Shown here: positions 1 through 6,014 of the stretch, one piece after another
Position numbering within the stretch: position 1 is the stretch's first letter
How the letters are laid out: each line of letters opens with the position of its first letter
NCBI GenBank assembly: GCA_016186395.1
Contig: JACPLU010000003.1
Location: 11,883-75,882 of the forward strand
DNA length: 64,000 nucleotides
Reading direction: 5' to 3'
Origin: Parcubacteria group bacterium
Lineage (GTDB): Bacteria > Patescibacteriota > Minisyncoccia > 2-02-FULL-40-12
The notes under the pieces: generated by a model
What the model saw: the letters and a program-made list of their open reading frames with translations, nothing else
What the model was told of the DNA's origin: nothing
Database searches by the model: none
Made by a program: the position numbers and the translations under genes

Positions 1-71
1 GAAAAGGGCGGAGGCGTAGGGAAACCGAGTGCGAATAGTGCGTTTACCCGCCTACATTTTTAGATTTTAAC

Positions 72-114
72 AAAAAAAACAGCTGACTGAATTTATGTTT
101 CAATACAGCTGTTA
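72..114 (-). terminator. Rho-independent terminator for the insertion-encoded minus-strand ORF
   Basis: aacagctg(79-86)...cagctgtt(107-114) hairpin followed on the minus strand by an 8-T run (A-run 71-78 on plus). Confidence 0.6.
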
Positions 115-148
115 CCACTACCACCGAAATTAAATTCTGACGGATTTC

Positions 149-376
149 TTAGTCAACCAGTAGTTTAAGGACCTCCTCGTCTTCGTTGTAAAAACCGAGG
201 AGTTCACCGAGATGATTAATCACAGTGGACTTTTGAATCCAGTTTGGAACATCCGTTGCTCCAGCGAGCCTCACTTTCGTGTAGACAACGACTTCGCTTT
301 GTGTGCCTTCCAAAAGAGCCTCAACAGAACATTTCCGAATGAATTTATCACCTTTTTTTAAGTCTTTAAATTTCAT
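149..376 (-). CDS. 75-aa protein of unknown function encoded antisense inside the 23S insertion
   Basis: RBS aaggagga sits 5 nt upstream of ATG (374-376, minus strand). The 113-aa ORF in the track would start inside rRNA sequence beyond the inverted repeat, so the internal start is preferred. A hairpin plus T-run lies downstream at 72-114 on the minus strand. Confidence 0.5.
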   Translation of the reverse strand: MKFKDLKKGDKFIRKCSVEALLEGTQSEVVVYTKVRLAGATDVPNWIQKSTVINHLGELLGFYNEDEEVLKLLVD

Positions 377-1000
377 TGTCTCCTCCTTGAAGTAAAGAAC
401 GCGTTTGTTGAAATAGCAGTATATACTATGGTAGCATATACTTTTGTTTTTGTCAATTGAATCTAAAAATGTAGGCGGGATTTGTCTCATACTTAAGACC
501 CGAAGCCGGGTGAGCTACCCATGGCCAGGATGAAGTTCCGCGAAAGCGGAATGGAGGTCCGAACCCACGCATGGCGCAATATGCGGGGATGAGCTGTGGG
601 TCGGAGTGAAAAGCTTATCGAACCCGGTAATAGCTGGTTCTCTCCGAAATGCCTTTAGGGGCAGCGTCGGATTATGTTAAGTTGGGGGTAGAGCACTGAT
701 TGGATTTCCGTGCCCTTATGGGTAGGTTTTCCAGCCAAACTCCGAATACCAATTTAATTACTCCGGCAGTGAGACTACGGGGGCGAAGCTCCGTGGTCGC
801 GACGGGAACAGCCGTGATCTCAAGTTAAGGTCCCTAAATTAAGGTTAAGTGTGAAAGGTAGTGAAGACGCTCAAACAACCAGGAGGTTTGCTTAGAAGCA
901 GCCATCCTTTAAAGAGTGCGTAACAGCTCACTGGTCGAGCTTTTTTGCGCCTAAGATGTAACGGGGCTAAAACCTTATACCGAAACTGAGGGTTATCTGT

Positions 1001-1108
1001 GGCTCATCGATGCGTCTAAGGTCAAATGACTAAGGACTAAAGCTGAAAGGTTTAATTTTTGGCTTTAGACTTTAGACTCTAGACTTTAGTCGTGACGATG
1101 AGTCACGG
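1001..1108. repeat. 108-bp hairpin element, copy 1, inserted at the 23S helix-45 IVS hotspot
   Basis: Differs from 2087-2194 by a single nucleotide. Imperfect hairpin: gactaaggactaaagc ... gctttagactttagactctagactttagtc. Flanked by ggctcatcgatg / cgatgagtcacgg. Confidence 0.8.
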
Positions 1109-1666
1109 GTAGCGGTAGGAGAGCGCTTCATGTGCAGTGAAGCCTACGACGTGAGTCGGGGTGGAGCGCATGGAGGTGAGAATGTTGGCATGAGTAACCA
1201 CAATCCGCCTGAAAACGGCGGACGCCGAAAGCCTAAGGATTCCTCCGCGATGGCAATCATCGGAGGGTTAGGCGGCCCTAAGCATAAGTCAGGTTTTGGC
1301 CTGGCGAATGCGATGGACAGCCGGTTAATATTCCGGCCCTTCCTTATATTTTTAAGGAGCCCGGAGCTTAGTAGACTTGGCATATTATTGGATTTATGTT
1401 TGTGATATAAGAATGCGTCTTTGGAAAATCCGGGATGCTGTCTTTAATGACGAATTTAAATATTATGAAAACCCTGGTAACAGGGAATCAAGTTGAGCAA
1501 GCTTCCTAGAAAAACTTCTAAAATTATGTATAAGGAGTCCGTACCGCAATCCGACACAGGTAGGCAGCCAGGGAAACTGGTAAGGCGAACGGGTGAATGG
1601 TGGCTAAGGAACTCGGCAAAACAGCGGGCGTAAGTTCGCAATATGCCCTGCCAGCCGTAGATTTTA

Positions 1667-1953
1667 GTTTTTAATTTAGTTATAAAGTATCCATGTACTG
1701 TATTTATCTAATTCAGCATTCTGTAACAAAACAAATTTATATTGGTCTAACCAATGATTTGAAACGTCGGTTGTATGAACATAATGCTTCACAACAGAAA
1801 GCGACCAAAAGAAAAATTGGAGAATGGGTTTTAGTTTATGCAGAGGCATACAGAAATAAGACGGACGCTCAAATTAGAGAAAGAAAGTTGAAGCAACACG
1901 GAAGTAATAAACGTTGGTTAAAGGACAGAATTAAGTACAGTTTATTTGAAGAT
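1667..1953. other. Second helix-tip insertion in 23S (E. coli helix-63 region), bounded by a 16-bp perfect inverted repeat
   Basis: ccagccgtagatttta (1651-1666) pairs with taaaatctacggctgg (1954-1969). Conserved 23S sequence resumes at ggggactgtttatcaaaaacacag. Confidence 0.7.
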
Positions 1954-1956
1954 TAA
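1693..1956 (+). CDS. GIY-YIG domain protein (87 aa) encoded inside the 23S insertion
   Basis: The YIGLTNDLKRRLYEHN motif is a GIY-YIG core. The ORF is in the same sense as the rRNA. Confidence 0.7.
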   Translation: MYCIYLIQHSVTKQIYIGLTNDLKRRLYEHNASQQKATKRKIGEWVLVYAEAYRNKTDAQIRERKLKQHGSNKRWLKDRIKYSLFED

Positions 1957-2086
1957 AATCTACGGCTGGCCGCAGCGAATGACCTCTGGGGACTGTTTAT
2001 CAAAAACACAGCTCTCTGCTAACTCGAAAGAGGATGTATAGGGGGCGACGCTTGTCCAATGCTGGAACGTTAACGGTGATGGTCGT

Positions 2087-2194
2087 GGCTCATCGATGCG
2101 TCTAAGGTAAAATGACTAAGGACTAAAGCTGAAAGGTTTAATTTTTGGCTTTAGACTTTAGACTCTAGACTTTAGTCGTGACGATGAGTCACGG
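2087..2194. repeat. 108-bp hairpin element, copy 2, inserted in the 23S domain IV helix-68 region
   Basis: Nearly identical to 1001-1108. It interrupts the 23S between ggtgatggtcgtg and ctggagcccgaagcgccagtcaatgacggc. Confidence 0.8.
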
Positions 2195-2241
2195 CTGGAG
2201 CCCGAAGCGCCAGTCAATGACGGCAATAACCATAATTGTCC

Positions 2242-2466
2242 AAAGGTGAATCGCATTGCCTTTGTAAAATCCGACTATATCGGTGAACATCTCACTAAGA
2301 CGTGAGACAATACCGAGGCAATCCGTGAAAACGGAGAGTCCGTAGAGACTAAACGTCGGATCCTGAGCAAGCCGAAAGGCTAGTTGAAGGAAAGATATAG
2401 TCCGAACTGCATGGCGACATGCAGAAATGAGCAGAAATGTCTCGTTCCGCCGAGTCTGATTCGGCG
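2242..2466 (+). mobile_element. Small ORF-less group I intron in 23S, near E. coli position 1917
   Basis: Inserted after ccataattgtcc (E. coli ACGGUCC). Carries P7-like core strands gagactaaacgtcgg and aagatatagtccgaac, like the Tetrahymena CAGACTAAATGTCGG / AAGATATAGTCGGAC. Ends in G. Confidence 0.6.
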
Positions 2467-2529
2467 AAGTAACAATGTTGAGCGCAATTCCTTTCCGGGT
2501 AAGTTACGGAACTTGCCCCATGAAGAAGT

Positions 2530-3200
2530 GATTCTTTATGCAAAGTCGGCTTATAACGGTGGAGCCTGTTTCATGATAAAATGGAATAGAGAATACCGTG
2601 GGAAGTTGTCTTGACCTAACTCAAGATTAACCCCGTAACGACTGAGGCGAAAGCCACAATGGCGTTTTTTGAAACGTCATTATACGCCGACCCCTTAGGA
2701 TATTATGAGGAATATCGAAGAATATATTTCTGGATATGTTGATGGCGAAGGATGTTTTACTGTAACTTTTAACAAAAGGGATAAAGCAAAAATTGGTTGG
2801 GAATTAAGACCAAGTTTTTCAGTCAGTCAGAATGAAGAAAGACGACAGGTGCTAGATATTATACAGAAATATTTTGGATGTGGTTTTATTCGAAGAGATT
2901 ATTCAGACAGAACAGTAAAATTTGAAATTCGAGACCACATACAACTTAGAGATAGGGTTATTCCTCATTTTGAGAGATTTCCATTGCTCTCAAATAAACA
3001 AAAAGATTTTGAATTGTTTAGAGAAGTATGCAAAATTATTGATCATGGAGGTCATCTTACAAAAAGTGGATTTATTAAGATTGTAAATTTTGCTTATCGA
3101 ATGAATGGATCTGGTAAGCGTAAAAGAACTTCCCAAGAAATAATTCGAAATCTTAAATGATACTTAAGGTGATGATATAGTCTATAGTCTTAATTTAAAG
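2530..3200 (+). mobile_element. Group I intron in 23S domain IV, around E. coli 1931-1951, carrying a LAGLIDADG ORF; boundaries approximate
   Basis: Non-rRNA block between ccccatgaag and ggaaccactggaggactgtctcagcc. Shares taaccccgtaacgactga and ataccgtgggaagt with the intron at 4694-5437, and has P7-like ggtgatgatatagtc. Confidence 0.6.
2705..3160 (+). CDS. LAGLIDADG homing endonuclease (151 aa)
   Basis: YISGYVDGEGCF is a LAGLIDADG motif. Size is typical of a single-motif enzyme, and it sits inside a group I intron of the 23S. Confidence 0.8.
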   Translation: MRNIEEYISGYVDGEGCFTVTFNKRDKAKIGWELRPSFSVSQNEERRQVLDIIQKYFGCGFIRRDYSDRTVKFEIRDHIQLRDRVIPHFERFPLLSNKQKDFELFREVCKIIDHGGHLTKSGFIKIVNFAYRMNGSGKRKRTSQEIIRNLK

Positions 3201-3473
3201 ATTAAGAAGTTCCGGAGCGCATGAAAAGCGGAACCACTGGAGGACTGTCTCAGCCACTGGCCCGGTGAAAATGCAATGTCAGTAAAGATGCTGACTACCC
3301 GCACCAAGACGGAAAGACCCCGGAAGCTTTACTGTCTCTTGGTATTGGTCTATGAGTTTGGATGCGTAGTGTAGTGGGTAGGATTTGAAGTCCACCTTTT
3401 GGGGTGGATGGATCCAACAATGAAACACCCATCTTTCAGATTTATAGCTCTAACTGGTGACACCCTAGAAGGA

Positions 3474-3780
3474 AAATTTATAAGGAGGAGATTCTATAAT
3501 GCTATTTGAAGGTTCTCCTAGCCCAACATTTGAAGAAGAAGAAAAGTTTGGATTTAATCTATCAACAAAAATTTATGTTCATATTAATTCACCTCTTTTA
3601 GGTGAAAATGGTAATAAGATAGAAAAGAAATTTGGTGTATTAATCCATCTTTTAACTGGAAAACACGCGAGATTCAAATTAGCTGATCAATTTCGAGTAT
3701 ATGGAAGTGCGGCTAATGTGATAAAATTTTTGAGTAGTTATTTTCAATAAATTTCCTTTTGACAAGCTAGTCTTGTCTCT
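3474..3780. other. Third helix-tip insertion in 23S (domain V helix-78/79 region) carrying a sense-strand gene cassette
   Basis: Bounded by ccctagaa (3464-3471) and ttctaggg (3781-3788). Conserved sequence resumes at caggacagtgcctggtggacagtttgaatggggcg. Confidence 0.6.
3499..3750 (+). CDS. 83-aa protein of unknown function inside the 23S insertion
   Basis: RBS aaggaggag 9 nt upstream of ATG. Hairpin gacaagctagtcttgtc immediately after the stop. Confidence 0.45.
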   Translation: MLFEGSPSPTFEEEEKFGFNLSTKIYVHINSPLLGENGNKIEKKFGVLIHLLTGKHARFKLADQFRVYGSAANVIKFLSSYFQ

Positions 3781-4148
3781 TTCTAGGGTTTCATCAGGAC
3801 AGTGCCTGGTGGACAGTTTGAATGGGGCGTTTCCCTCCTAAAGAGTAACGGAGGGGTCCATAAGGTACCCTAGTCCCGGATGGAAATCGGGACGATAGTG
3901 TAAAAGCATAAGGGTGCTTGACTGCAAGGCAAACGTGCCGCGCAGGTGCGAAAGCAGGGTTTAGTGAACCGACCGTGGCTGGTAGGAGCGCGGAAGATTA
4001 TCGGATAAAAGCTACTCCGGGGATAACAGGCTAGTACCGCCCGAGCGTCCATAGCGACGGCGGTGTTCGGCACCTCGATGTCGGCTCGGCTTATCCTGGC
4101 GGTGAAGAAGCTGCCAAGGGTTGGGCTGTTCGCCCATTAAAAAGCTAC

Positions 4149-4621
4149 GCGAGCTGGGTTCAGACCGTTAAGAATCTGAATCATAAATCATGAAACTTGA
4201 AACATCTTGTTTCGGTTTGATTTGGTTTTTTAACAGTCTGAATCCGAGGATATTCAAAAGACATCATTTAACGGCGGCACTATATAGGAATATATAGTGT
4301 GAAGTTGACCATATCGGTGAAATCCCATTGGGATAACACCTAGGGAAGTTTGTAAACTTTATTGAAGTTCTTTTTTGGGAGGTGTAGCTCAAGAGTATTG
4401 TATGATGAAAGGCGAAAGTCGGGGACTCATACAGTAGCGAGAGCACTGGACTCTGGATCCAGAGGTTGCAGGTAAAAATCCTATCACCACCCACCAATTT
4501 TTGAGTAATCAATATTTGGCACTTCAATAAAGTTTACAAATCCCGTAGAGACTATACGTCAGCCACCCTAATTGAGCTTAGCTCAGCGGGTGAAGATATA
4601 GTCCAGTGCATACAGCAATGT
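4149..4621 (+). mobile_element. ORF-less group I intron in 23S at the I-CreI/I-CeuI-type site (around E. coli 2593)
   Basis: Exon gggttcagaccgt | intron | cgtgagacaggttggtcc matches E. coli GGGUUUAGAACGU|CGUGAGACAGUUCGGUCC. Core strands agactatacgtc and gaagatatagtcc are present and the intron ends in G. The only ORF in it (4264-4527, minus strand) looks spurious. Confidence 0.7.
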
Positions 4622-4693
4622 ATGAAACATGCGTGAGACAGGTTGGTCCTTATCTGGTGTGGGCGTTAAGACTTGAGGGGAGCTGCTCCTAGT

Positions 4694-5437
4694 AGAATTT
4701 GCTACTTTAAGGAGTAATCCTTAATGACAATCCGACTTATAACGGTGGAACCTTATTGCAACTTGATTTGTTGATAACCAGAATTATCCTAATCCAATAA
4801 TTCTGGTACAATTTACTTGAGGACAAGATAGTAATAAGACAATACCGTGGGAAGTCATTCTAAAAACGATTTAGCATATATTTCCGGTTTTCTTGATGGA
4901 GACGGAAGTTTAATGTTGCAGATCAAAAAGTATAAGTACAATAAGTCAGGAAAAAGATTCATGGTAACTATTTGTTTCTATCAGGATTCAAGACACGACA
5001 AACCTCTTTATTGGATCCGTAAGATATTCGGGATAGGGTATATATCTAAAAGAAATGACGGTATTACTGAATTAAGAATAAATGGATATTCTAGAGTAAG
5101 AATAATTTTAGAAAAACTATTGCCGTTTATTAAGTTTAAGAAGAAGCAAGCAAGAATTCTTTATAAAGCGAGTAAATTACTCGAAAAAGAAAAAAAACTT
5201 AAAAAGACTTCCATGATTCGACTCGTAGATTACATAGTAAGAATCCAAGAGGAAAATTATGTGACAAGAAAAAAGAGATCGAAAGATGATTTATTAAAAT
5301 TTTTAGGATTGACCCCGTAACGACTCATCTTTAAAATAGATGGATGGCTGTTTTTAAACAGTCATAATATGTCGGCTCCCATCTTTGTCGATGGGATGAA
5401 GATATAGTCTACTCTTCTGGTGACAGAAGAAAATGTG
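4694..5437 (+). mobile_element. Group I intron in 23S inserted within the sarcin-ricin loop, carrying a LAGLIDADG ORF
   Basis: Joining exons cctagt + acgagaggattgg recreates CUAGUACGAGAGGA. The 5' exon ends in U and the intron ends in G. Core strands taatatgtcgg and gaagatatagtct are present. Confidence 0.65.
4847..5320 (+). CDS. LAGLIDADG homing endonuclease (157 aa)
   Basis: LAYISGFLDGDGSL is a LAGLIDADG motif; the ORF is intron-encoded. Confidence 0.8.
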   Translation: MGSHSKNDLAYISGFLDGDGSLMLQIKKYKYNKSGKRFMVTICFYQDSRHDKPLYWIRKIFGIGYISKRNDGITELRINGYSRVRIILEKLLPFIKFKKKQARILYKASKLLEKEKKLKKTSMIRLVDYIVRIQEENYVTRKKRSKDDLLKFLGLTP

Positions 5438-5517
5438 ACGAGAGGATTGGAGTGGGGAAACCTCTGGCGTACCAGTAGTCCTGCCAAGGGCGTCGCTGGG
5501 TATCTATGTTTCCAAGT

Positions 5518-5548
<31 letters not shown>

Positions 5549-5703
5549 ATGCCCCAAGATTAGGTCTTTCTCTCCTGGAAGACTACCAGGTTGATAGGAT
5601 TCAGGTGTAAGCGCGGCAACGCGTTCAGCCGAGAATTACTAATAGAGAAACAATTTATTTTACCTTTTTTATAAATTCACCGAATACATAGTTTAAGAAT
5701 TGA

Positions 5704-5834
5704 AAAGACTAATTTGGCGATAATGCCGAGTGTGTCCCACCTCTGGTTTGTTTACAAGCCTTAATCCATTCCGAACAGAGAAGTGAAATCACTCAGGGCC
5801 GATGGTAGTTCGAGCTTAGCTCGAGCCAGAGTAG
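5704..5834 (+). rRNA. rrf: 5S rRNA, with a roughly 17-nt expansion in the helix III / loop B region
   Basis: Carries the 5S blocks gtcccacct, ccattccgaacagagaagtgaaa and ggccgatggtag, and ends in agagtaggtcgtcgccag. It lies about 55 bp after the 23S end. Confidence 0.7.
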
Positions 5835-6014
5835 GTCGTCGCCAGATTAGTCTTTTTAATTTGCTCTGTCACCAGGTCCAGCATAGCCACGCACCTTTTG
5901 TAAAACAAAAGGTGCGAGAGTACAAAAAATTAGTGCTGGGCTCCCTGTCCTGTCCGGCAGGCGGGGATGCGGGGCTTCTTGCAATAAAACAGATATTCGC
6001 GGTACGATTGAAGC

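Follow-up and report, generated by a model that had tools for sequence, protein, structure and literature searches.

A hairpin-bounded GIY-YIG nuclease gene at helix 63 of a Parcubacteria 23S rRNA gene: a probable mobile intervening sequence

The element of interest lies within a 23S rRNA gene of a Parcubacteria group bacterium. The DNA analysed, hereafter the window, is a stretch of 64,000 nucleotides (nt; GenBank assembly GCA_016186395.1, contig JACPLU010000003.1, positions 11,883–75,882 of the forward strand), and all coordinates are counted from its first letter. The element, at positions 1650–1970, consists of (i) a terminal inverted repeat that takes the place of the stem of 23S rRNA helix 63 (H63), and (ii) an open reading frame (ORF) encoding a protein of 87 amino acids (aa) with a GIY-YIG nuclease domain. 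It is probably a mobile hairpin of the intervening sequence (IVS) type, rather than an intron or a plain host gene. Its mobility is supported by a patchy distribution, by the presence of pseudogenes, and by copies with the same terminal repeats outside rRNA genes. The parts of the element are as follows.

1650–1970, plus strand: the whole hairpin-bounded element, 321 nt, at 23S helix 63 (E. coli positions about 1708–1750)
1650–1674, plus strand: 5' arm of the terminal inverted repeat, forming the 5' strand of the extended helix 63 in the Rfam large subunit (LSU) alignment; 1650–1666 pairs by perfect Watson-Crick pairing, and 1667–1674 includes three G·U pairs
1675–1692, plus strand: A/U-rich leader of 18 nt between stem and start codon, with no Shine-Dalgarno motif
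1693–1956, plus strand: 87 aa ORF, predicted stand-alone GIY-YIG nuclease domain of the UPF0213/SLX1-like branch; its TAA stop codon (1954–1956) lies in the 3' arm
1946–1970, plus strand: 3' arm of the terminal inverted repeat, which supplies the 3' strand of the extended helix 63 and shares sequence with the final three sense codons and the stop codon

The inverted repeat forms the stem of helix 63

An earlier note on this DNA, made by a model from the sequence letters, described a 287 nt insertion held between perfect 16 bp inverted repeats. The arms are indeed exact: CCAGCCGTAGATTTTA occupies 1651–1666 and its exact reverse complement, TAAAATCTACGGCTGG, occupies 1954–1969, with a spacer of 287 nt (1667–1953) between them. 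G1650 and C1970 form a 17th perfect pair of the terminal stem, and three G·U pairs extend the RNA stem to 25 bp (1650–1674 with 1946–1970). Within the 64 kb window, the two arms are the sole occurrences of their 14 nt core (0.34 chance matches expected at up to two mismatches), and no further copy of the class A terminus described below was found there. The note also placed the ORF inside the insertion. The ORF is clamped by the hairpin as described; it is not wholly contained in the 287 nt spacer, because its stop codon falls within the 3' arm. The inverted repeat is thus more than a clamp around an insertion: it replaces the H63 stem itself and travels with the ORF.

The window starts inside the bacterial 23S rRNA gene, which is on the plus strand, ends at around 5640, and is followed by a 5S rRNA gene (5713–5847). 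When 1480–2090 is aligned to the Rfam LSU model, the hairpin of model positions 1750–1775 carries 295 extra nt in its terminal loop, and each of its strands is aligned with one arm of the repeat. Two anchors of known E. coli position, GGAACTCGGCAAAA (1666–1679) and ACTGTTTAT..CACAG (1773–1792), identify the hairpin as H63 (E. coli about 1708–1750). The insert is thereby predicted to fold as a helix extension, with a 25 bp stem whose arms lie on the H63 strands, a check that the earlier note had proposed. H63 is the site of the eukaryotic expansion segment ES27L, and a transposon insertion at this point is tolerated in E. coli with function kept (PMC2441807).

Features by which an IVS is recognised are present. 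Firstly, the insertion is at the tip of a variable, surface-exposed helix, in the H63 loop, and is missing from many relatives (81 of 117 have a short H63). Secondly, its termini are complementary over a long stretch, where about 20 bp or more is usual: 17 bp are perfect, and 25 bp are paired when G·U is allowed. H63 is a new site for the IVS class, the classical sites being helices 25 and 45 (H25 and H45).

The earlier note's statement that no group I intron core surrounds the ORF is borne out. No Rfam model of group I or group II introns matches 1480–2090, even at E ≤ 10, and no group I covariance-model core is present at 1650–1970. The same search finds group I (RF00028) matches elsewhere in the gene, at 2149–2424, 3086–3206, 4255–4625 and 5316–5430, none of which overlaps the element. 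Furthermore, the non-coding part of the element amounts to 43 nt on the 5' side and 14 nt on the 3' side (57 nt in total), almost entirely stem, which leaves no room for a ribozyme core.

The encoded protein is a small GIY-YIG domain under purifying selection

A profile search, also proposed in the earlier note, agrees with its call of an 87 aa GIY-YIG protein in the rRNA sense: the product of the plus-strand ORF matches the Pfam GIY-YIG family (PF01541) over residues 1–72 with 64.1 bits (cut-off 22.6; E = 1.5e-17). NCBI annotates it as a GIY-YIG nuclease family protein. The NCBIfam model TIGR01453 ("group I intron endonuclease") aligns with residues 3–44 only, giving 24.9 bits against a cut-off of 56.05 bits. 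No second GIY-YIG ORF was found in the window.

A protein search returned 43 homologs, of which 41 are 57–76% identical to the window protein and most are 85–90 aa long. Residues Y16, G18, R26, H30, E51, D58, R62, K67 and G70 are invariant across the 43, and Y5 and E63 are kept in at least 90% of them. Alignment with UPF0213 and SLX1 suggests catalytic roles for the residues of the GIY-YIG motif (Tyr, Tyr-x-Gly, Arg, His/Tyr and the metal-binding Glu). At looser thresholds, the small GIY-YIG proteins form a superset of 15,255 cluster representatives (E ≤ 1e-3), of which the close subfamily makes up 7 (E ≤ 1e-30). Viral contigs hold only distant GIY-YIG proteins (30–43% identity), and hence give no phage link.

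An AlphaFold2 model of the protein (predicted local distance difference test score, pLDDT, 95.2) has the order of elements E-E-H-E-H-H, which is the GIY-YIG topology of a three-stranded sheet with flanking helices. By profile and fold, the closest solved structures are UPF0213 proteins (1zg2, E = 4e-8; 1ywl) and SLX1 (7cq3, TM-score 0.64), and all of the top matches are GIY-YIG domains; I-TevI (TM-score 0.44) and UvrC rank well behind. Judged from sequence and model, the protein is of the UPF0213/SLX1 type, lacks a DNA-binding domain, and is not a classical homing endonuclease of the I-TevI type. Neither the C-terminal DNA-binding module nor the location in a self-splicing intron that mark such enzymes was found. 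Of the earlier note's suggestion of a free-standing or IVS-resident GIY-YIG nuclease, the fold and the setting in a non-intron helix extension stand.

Among 18 intact copies, the proportion of nonsynonymous differences (pN) is below that of synonymous differences (pS) in all 153 pairwise comparisons, with a mean pN of 0.31 and a pS of 0.85 at saturated synonymous sites. The ORF is under purifying selection and is maintained as a protein. Its ATG start codon has no Shine-Dalgarno motif, and the same is true of 31 of the 36 ORFs of at least 150 aa in the window (by crude start calls); copies in Spirochaetota, described below, carry strong AAGGAGG sites. No plausible plus-strand promoter of its own was found upstream of the ORF.

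The element recurs at helix 63, and its stem covaries

All seven homologs of at least 57% identity that were traced to their DNA lie in a 23S rRNA gene, in the same helix (H63). A scan of one genome per species found 16 loci, of which 11 are in H63, as assigned by mapping of anchor sequences, and five are elsewhere (L016 and L020–L023). In all, 17 distinct 23S genes carry a homologous H63 element, counting that of the window and one from a metagenome sample (L048). The search for the same helix insertion in 23S genes of the candidate phyla radiation (CPR), suggested by the earlier note, has thus produced 16 other distinct genes. The hosts of the H63 elements are Kaiser-, Yanofsky-, Moran- and Giovannonibacteria, Paceibacterota and other Patescibacteria. 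GCA_002778575.1 and GCA_027082835.1 are among the bins that carry an element.

Each of the 19 elements analysed has an uninterrupted Watson-Crick stem of 15–25 bp at its base. When 18 stems are aligned, 97.7% of cells are paired and 14 of 19 pairs have changed on both sides, a result matched by none of 500 shuffles; shifting the partner by 1–3 columns lowers pairing to 28–47%. One covarying pair involves the middle base of the stop codon: where TAA gives way to TGA, T gives way to C in the 5' arm. Beyond the Watson-Crick stem, G·U pairs on the rRNA-sense strand lengthen 12 of the 19 stems, by 50 bp in total, and A·C, the antisense equivalent, lengthens none. The extension events are phylogenetically non-independent, but this asymmetry argues that it is the sense transcript that folds. 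In addition to the pairing, the sequence of the termini is itself conserved: within a class the terminal 13 nt are 94–97% identical, far more alike than the third codon positions of the ORF (about 42%).

The element is rare at an insertion hot spot, and some copies have decayed

Distribution was assessed in 23S genes sharing the neighbouring helix 62 sequence, among which the H63 region was readable in 117. A minimal H63, with a 5–8 bp stem and a GCAA-type loop (for instance GCCCATC-GCAA-GATGGGC), is found in 81 (69%); an example of such an empty site is GGCCTGCCCATCGCAAGATGGGCCGCAGCG. The other 36 (31%) carry H63 inserts of 110–531 nt that have long inverted repeats at their ends and comprise many unrelated sequences. 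The GIY-YIG ORF is present in two of the 117 (about 2%), L048 and L067, which represent one distinct sequence. The idea that the other long inserts are decayed GIY-YIG elements was ruled out by tblastn, which detected ORF remnants in L024 and L025 only. H63 is thus a general insertion hot spot that the GIY-YIG element occupies only rarely.

Decay is visible in several copies, as a frameshift in L024, an internal deletion in L025, and 5' frameshifts in both L022 and L023. The identity of the rRNA flanks does not predict that of the ORFs (Spearman 0.05, p = 0.65; a crude test on short flanks), and two pairs with 84% identical flanks (L009/L019 and L011/L048) carry elements of different classes. 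Within the limits of that test, the mismatch between flanks and ORFs points to repeated acquisition, and not to vertical descent alone.

Repeat classes, copies outside rRNA genes, and hairpins without an ORF

The elements fall into classes defined by their termini. The window element belongs to class A, in which the termini CCAGCCGTAgATT go with the protein motif KQHGSNKRWL. In class B, of which L153 encodes a homolog, the termini are CCAGCACCACTTT and the motif is KQHGRAKQEL. The termini of class C, represented by L048, are CCCTCACCAGTTTTGG. The class of the repeat corresponds to the C-terminal motif of the protein in 17 of 17 elements, a match that common descent of the whole unit could explain.

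The five non-H63 loci of the genome scan show no rRNA match. L016 is a class A copy with a 22 bp perfect repeat, and lies directly after the stop codon of a 290 aa gene on a 98.7 kb Patescibacteria contig. It is abutted by a scaffold gap with a duplicated flank, as would be expected if the element is repeated in that genome. L020 and L021 are class B copies in Leptospirales bins of the Spirochaetota, and L022 and L023, from another Leptospirales bin, are decayed, with one or part of the class B ends left. A further class B copy with a 16 bp repeat (L163:2464–2774, Spirochaetota bin GCA_042569985.1) lies within an IS91-family transposase gene, with the zinc-finger part on one side of it and the Y2_Tnp domain on the other. 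Removal of CCAGC...GCTGG restores the reading frame of that gene, an outcome that chance would give one time in three; the rejoined transposase and its plasmid homologs are too divergent beyond the zinc-finger region for the edge of the element to be placed. L021, L022 and L023 adjoin IS91 fragments. Given the proximity of IS91 at these three loci and at L163, the element may ride on IS91 there.

Some hairpins have the same ends and no ORF. The 23S gene of Moranbacteria RIFCSPLOWO2_12_FULL_48_12 (L012) carries two ORF-less class A hairpins of about 100 nt, at 1321–1426 (in H25) and 2701–2805, which share 17 bp ends. ORF-less hairpins with class A or class B termini are also present in L004 (H25) and L019 (a domain I helix). 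L012 has, in addition, two different GIY-YIG hairpins: one at 731–1025 in a domain I helix, with an 84 aa ORF (751–1005) whose stop codon is in the 3' arm, and one at 2970–3275 in H63. The same domain I helix holds a GIY-YIG-like ORF in L075. One further L012 candidate, at 1055–1142, was rejected as a mobile hairpin; in the Rfam alignment it is a native long-range helix around conserved rRNA.

Identical termini at non-homologous loci, as in transposable elements with terminal inverted repeats, are thus seen at L016, L021 and L163 and in the ORF-less copies. The other hallmarks of such elements, a target-site duplication and a recognised transposase, were not found, the only ORF being the GIY-YIG domain.

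Transcription, excision and spread of the element

The following course of events is proposed. The element would be transcribed within the pre-23S rRNA, as indicated by its sense orientation and by the lack of a promoter-like site upstream. Its terminal repeats would pair into a 17–25 bp duplex in place of the H63 stem, and the flanking rRNA would therefore fold normally. The duplex, with two helical turns of perfectly paired RNA, would then be cut by RNase III, whose usual substrates are of such length, and the 23S rRNA would end up either split or with a short stub. Excision would be the most likely fate of the insert because the length of the duplex suits RNase III, as in the intervening sequences of H25 and H45, and by this analogy we lean towards the insert being cut out of the pre-rRNA. 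The ORF would be translated from the precursor or from the released fragment of ~290 nt, yielding the predicted 87 aa GIY-YIG nuclease of UPF0213/SLX1 type.

At the level of DNA, the repeats and the ORF probably form a single selfish mobile unit. Its targets would be the tips of variable rRNA helices, which tolerate insertions, and now and then a locus of another kind. The nuclease could drive or maintain its spread through cuts in DNA, made either in or close to the repeat or at target sites that are still empty. A break at an empty helix tip might be repaired by copying in the element, amounting to homing without an intron; alternatively, the hairpin may be what the nuclease acts on. We regard as evenly poised the proposal that this enzyme mobilises the element. 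An insertion would spare the ribosome only if it is self-complementary and placed at a helix tip, which would be why insertions persist at such sites; the apparent site preference may reflect a selection of survivors, and not only targeting. With regard to excision, CPR rRNA insertions are reported to be removed from transcripts (PMC11270868, citing Brown et al. 2015).

A number of points weigh against a mobile, excised IVS of this kind. H63 is the ES27L site, and the insert could accordingly stay in the mature rRNA; cutting by RNase III at the window locus is argued from analogy, and no RNase III gene or signature was detected in the 64 kb window, which is only part of the genome. A catalytic domain of 87 aa with no DNA-binding domain is unlikely to act by itself as a site-specific homing enzyme, and strong purifying selection fits a host-useful gene too. 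No target-site duplication or consistent target is visible at L016, L021 or L163. Stems that start with CCAGC also occur natively, in L012 (1055–1142) and in the short H63 of L045 (CCCAGC-GCAA-GCTGGG) and L135; the outermost pairs of the repeat may thus be common to the host helix or have originated in it. Finally, the taxon labels used here are those of metagenome bins.

Alternative explanations

A bolder and more tentative explanation, which we regard as possible and rather unlikely, is that the repeat-plus-ORF unit represents a so far undescribed kind of autonomous palindromic mobile element, whose minimal SLX1/UPF0213-like nuclease would recognise the hairpin formed by the element's own termini and transfer it as a whole. 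Recognition may be of a DNA hairpin, of a cruciform or of a specific duplex sequence; target sites may include rRNA helix tips, protein-coding genes and the genomes of other phyla; and the ORF-less hairpins with the same ends may be non-autonomous derivatives. The conserved termini, the match between class and protein motif, the copies outside rRNA and in Spirochaetota, the ORF-less copies and the likeness to SLX1, a structure-specific nuclease and the closest structural relative of known function, are all consistent with such an element.

It is improbable, secondly, that the insert is a retained expansion segment, similar to ES27L, housing a domesticated and vertically inherited host gene for repair or housekeeping that makes use of the strong rRNA promoter. 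In its favour, insertions in H63, the site of ES27, are tolerated in E. coli; purifying selection on the ORF is strong; stand-alone UPF0213-like proteins form the huge family of 15,255 cluster representatives noted above; and one relative, 52% identical, is an ordinary gene between rpmJ and rpsM. However, a useful and vertically inherited gene sits poorly with an element found in about 2% of related 23S genes, 69% of which have a minimal H63, and with copies that have become pseudogenes. Different classes occur in close rRNAs, ORF similarity is uncorrelated with flank similarity, and the same repeat-plus-ORF unit is found outside rRNA and in another phylum. Furthermore, an ORF retained inside an assembled 50S subunit could hardly be translated.

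We consider it very doubtful that the ORF is a silent relic, and that the RNA hairpin is all that matters, as has been proposed for the S23p ORF of Coxiella (PMC4990558). Such a relic would account for the ATG without a Shine-Dalgarno motif and for the pseudogenes among the family members. Yet pN is below pS in every one of the 153 pairs, despite saturated synonymous sites, and a length of 85–90 aa and the catalytic-type residues are kept across at least 17 diverged copies; as to the start codon, the host seldom uses Shine-Dalgarno motifs, and the Spirochaetota copies do have strong AAGGAGG sites. Least credible of all is an ordinary homing endonuclease encoded in a degenerate or unrecognised group I or II intron that is spliced out and religated: the same 23S gene does hold group I introns with LAGLIDADG ORFs, GIY-YIG enzymes are classic passengers of group I introns, and TIGR01453 gives its weak match of 24.9 bits, but that match is far under the cut-off and covers residues 3–44 only, the intron models that find four group I matches elsewhere in the gene give none in 1480–2090 at E ≤ 10, the 43 + 14 nt outside the ORF have no space for a core, the architecture is unchanged outside rRNA, and all GIY-YIG ORFs of CPR rRNA genes were found in insertions unlike either type of intron in a published survey (PMC11270868).

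Relation to known systems

Brown et al. (2015) are said, as cited by Tsurumaki et al. (2024), to have noted GIY-YIG ORFs in CPR rRNA insertions. The survey of Tsurumaki et al. (2024; PMC11270868) records 15 GIY-YIG ORFs among 348 CPR 23S genes, all of them in insertions other than group I or II introns, and regards these ORFs as sparse, spread over several sites, and outside classical homing. This kind of insertion was thus already known from both records, and the survey treats the same phenomenon at the level of a catalogue. The portions of it that were searched do not describe the terminal hairpin, the H63 site, selection on the ORF, the repeat-protein classes, the ORF-less derivatives, or copies outside rRNA or outside the CPR. 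Likewise, the literature searched in full text, which has partial coverage, gave no description of the hairpin as a unit, its recurrence at H63, the selection, the classes of repeat and protein, the ORF-less derivatives, or the extra-rRNA and Spirochaetota copies.

The closest mechanistic analogue of the mobile IVS-type hairpin proposed here is the ORF-bearing IVS of Leptospira and Coxiella. Classical 23S intervening sequences have 28 bp terminal stems that are cut by RNase III, carry sense-strand ORFs, and are regarded as selfish (PMC4990558); for the window element, excision is putative. Like the window element, the IVSs of Leptospira, Coxiella and Brucella (S23p/PF05635, in helices 25 and 45) are found sporadically at the tip of a variable helix, with terminal inverted repeats and an ORF in the sense orientation. 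The window element differs from them in its location at H63 and in encoding a GIY-YIG nuclease instead of the four-helix-bundle S23p protein. Moreover, the ORF of the Coxiella IVS is decaying, whereas that of the window family is under purifying selection. One locus with a family member, L007, also has a PF05635 ORF elsewhere in its 23S gene.

With regard to the protein, UPF0213 (YhbQ-like) and SLX1 are the best matches by profile and fold. UPF0213 proteins are of the same size (about 90 aa) and consist of the catalytic domain only, but they are encoded by ordinary genes of the chromosome, for which no association with inverted repeats or rRNA is known. SLX1 is a structure-specific endonuclease that has an added RING-type domain and needs SLX4, whereas the window protein is an 87 aa domain alone. 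Endonucleases of the I-TevI type and the phage Seg endonucleases share the GIY-YIG fold and are likewise products of selfish genes that enter conserved, highly expressed genes; in contrast to the window protein, with its 87 aa and no intron, they have a linker and a C-terminal DNA-binding domain and measure about 200–250 aa.

A further parallel lies in repetitive extragenic palindromic sequences with their associated tyrosine transposases (REP/RAYT) and in miniature inverted-repeat transposable elements with their parent insertion sequences (MITE/IS). In both, a coding copy exists beside shorter, ORF-less hairpins with the same termini. The window family resembles them in having such hairpins, and in having termini far more conserved than the interior. 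It is unlike them in encoding a GIY-YIG nuclease rather than an HUH or DDE transposase, in showing no target-site duplication, and in the few copies known so far.

Insertions in rRNA genes are a hallmark of the CPR and confound rRNA-based surveys. Introns bearing LAGLIDADG ORFs are understood, but the non-intron insertions are not. The present work indicates that at least one class of the latter is a discrete, hairpin-bounded unit with a nuclease gene under selection, and that this unit moves beyond rRNA genes and from one phylum to another. Should the nuclease act on its own hairpin, the unit would be a very small self-contained mobile element encoding a compact nuclease with specificity for sequence or structure. 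Excision of the insert, should it occur, would split the 23S rRNA at H63, a site not known for this in other bacteria.

Other features of the window and related loci

The 23S gene holds several other insertions. The element described above was called the second repeat-clamped insertion of the gene in the earlier note, and an earlier one is present at 47–479 (arms 47–81 and 445–479), just upstream of E. coli position 669. It encloses a 75 aa ORF (152–376) that runs on the minus strand, opposite to the rRNA sense. A strong AAGGAGG lies 4 nt ahead of the ATG, and the same strand has a promoter-like site (TTGACA-17-TACCAT) at 456–428. Nothing in Pfam, NCBIfam or PHROGs matches the protein, and it has no homolog but itself among 5.8 billion sequences. 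A third, stem-clamped insertion at 3454–3797 (20 nt arms, 85% complementary) carries an 83 aa ORF in the rRNA sense (3499–3750, plus strand), also with a strong AAGGAGG site; its product has no match in Pfam, NCBIfam or PHROGs. Shine-Dalgarno-like motifs precede only 5 of the 36 window ORFs of at least 150 aa (crude start calls), and the perfect AAGGAGG at 152–376 and 3499–3750, set against this rare host use, is a hint of foreign origin.

A near-perfect hairpin of 110 nt (z-scores −9 to −10) occurs twice, at 999–1108 and 2085–2194, with 99% identity between the copies. One of the two is at the tip of helix 45, a classical IVS site; the other is just before the position-1917 intron site, probably in helix 66 by comparison with E. 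coli. A third copy is absent from the window. It seems that a small palindromic element has moved recently within this 23S gene.

Group I intron regions extend over 2149–3206, 4255–4625 and about 4690–5430, with LAGLIDADG_1 ORFs at 2705–3160 and 4847–5320. The ORF-less match at 4255–4625 contains a perfect 20 bp inverted repeat (4349–4368 with 4521–4540), inside which there is a weak tRNA-like Rfam match (4434–4485, 20.9 bits) that is probably noise; an ARAGORN scan of 1–6000 found no tRNA, there or elsewhere. Downstream, the 5S rRNA gene is bracketed by a 23 nt inverted repeat (5698–5720 and 5839–5861, 91% complementary), presumably the 5S processing stem.

Two observations concern more distant relatives of the nuclease gene. 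A shorter GIY-YIG gene, 52% identical, is present between infA/rpmJ and rpsM, in a ribosomal-protein operon of groundwater CPR, at L146:721–1041 and in five similar contigs; at L146 it has no flanking inverted repeat, and the called ORF overlaps the end of an apparently shortened rpmJ. In Lewinellaceae (L164:2400–2900), a distant homolog is located between two nearly identical tRNA-like direct repeats, GGGGTGTAGCGCAGCCCGGTTAGCGCGTCCCGACACGGGTGTCGGGAAGGCCGGAGGTTCGAATCC.

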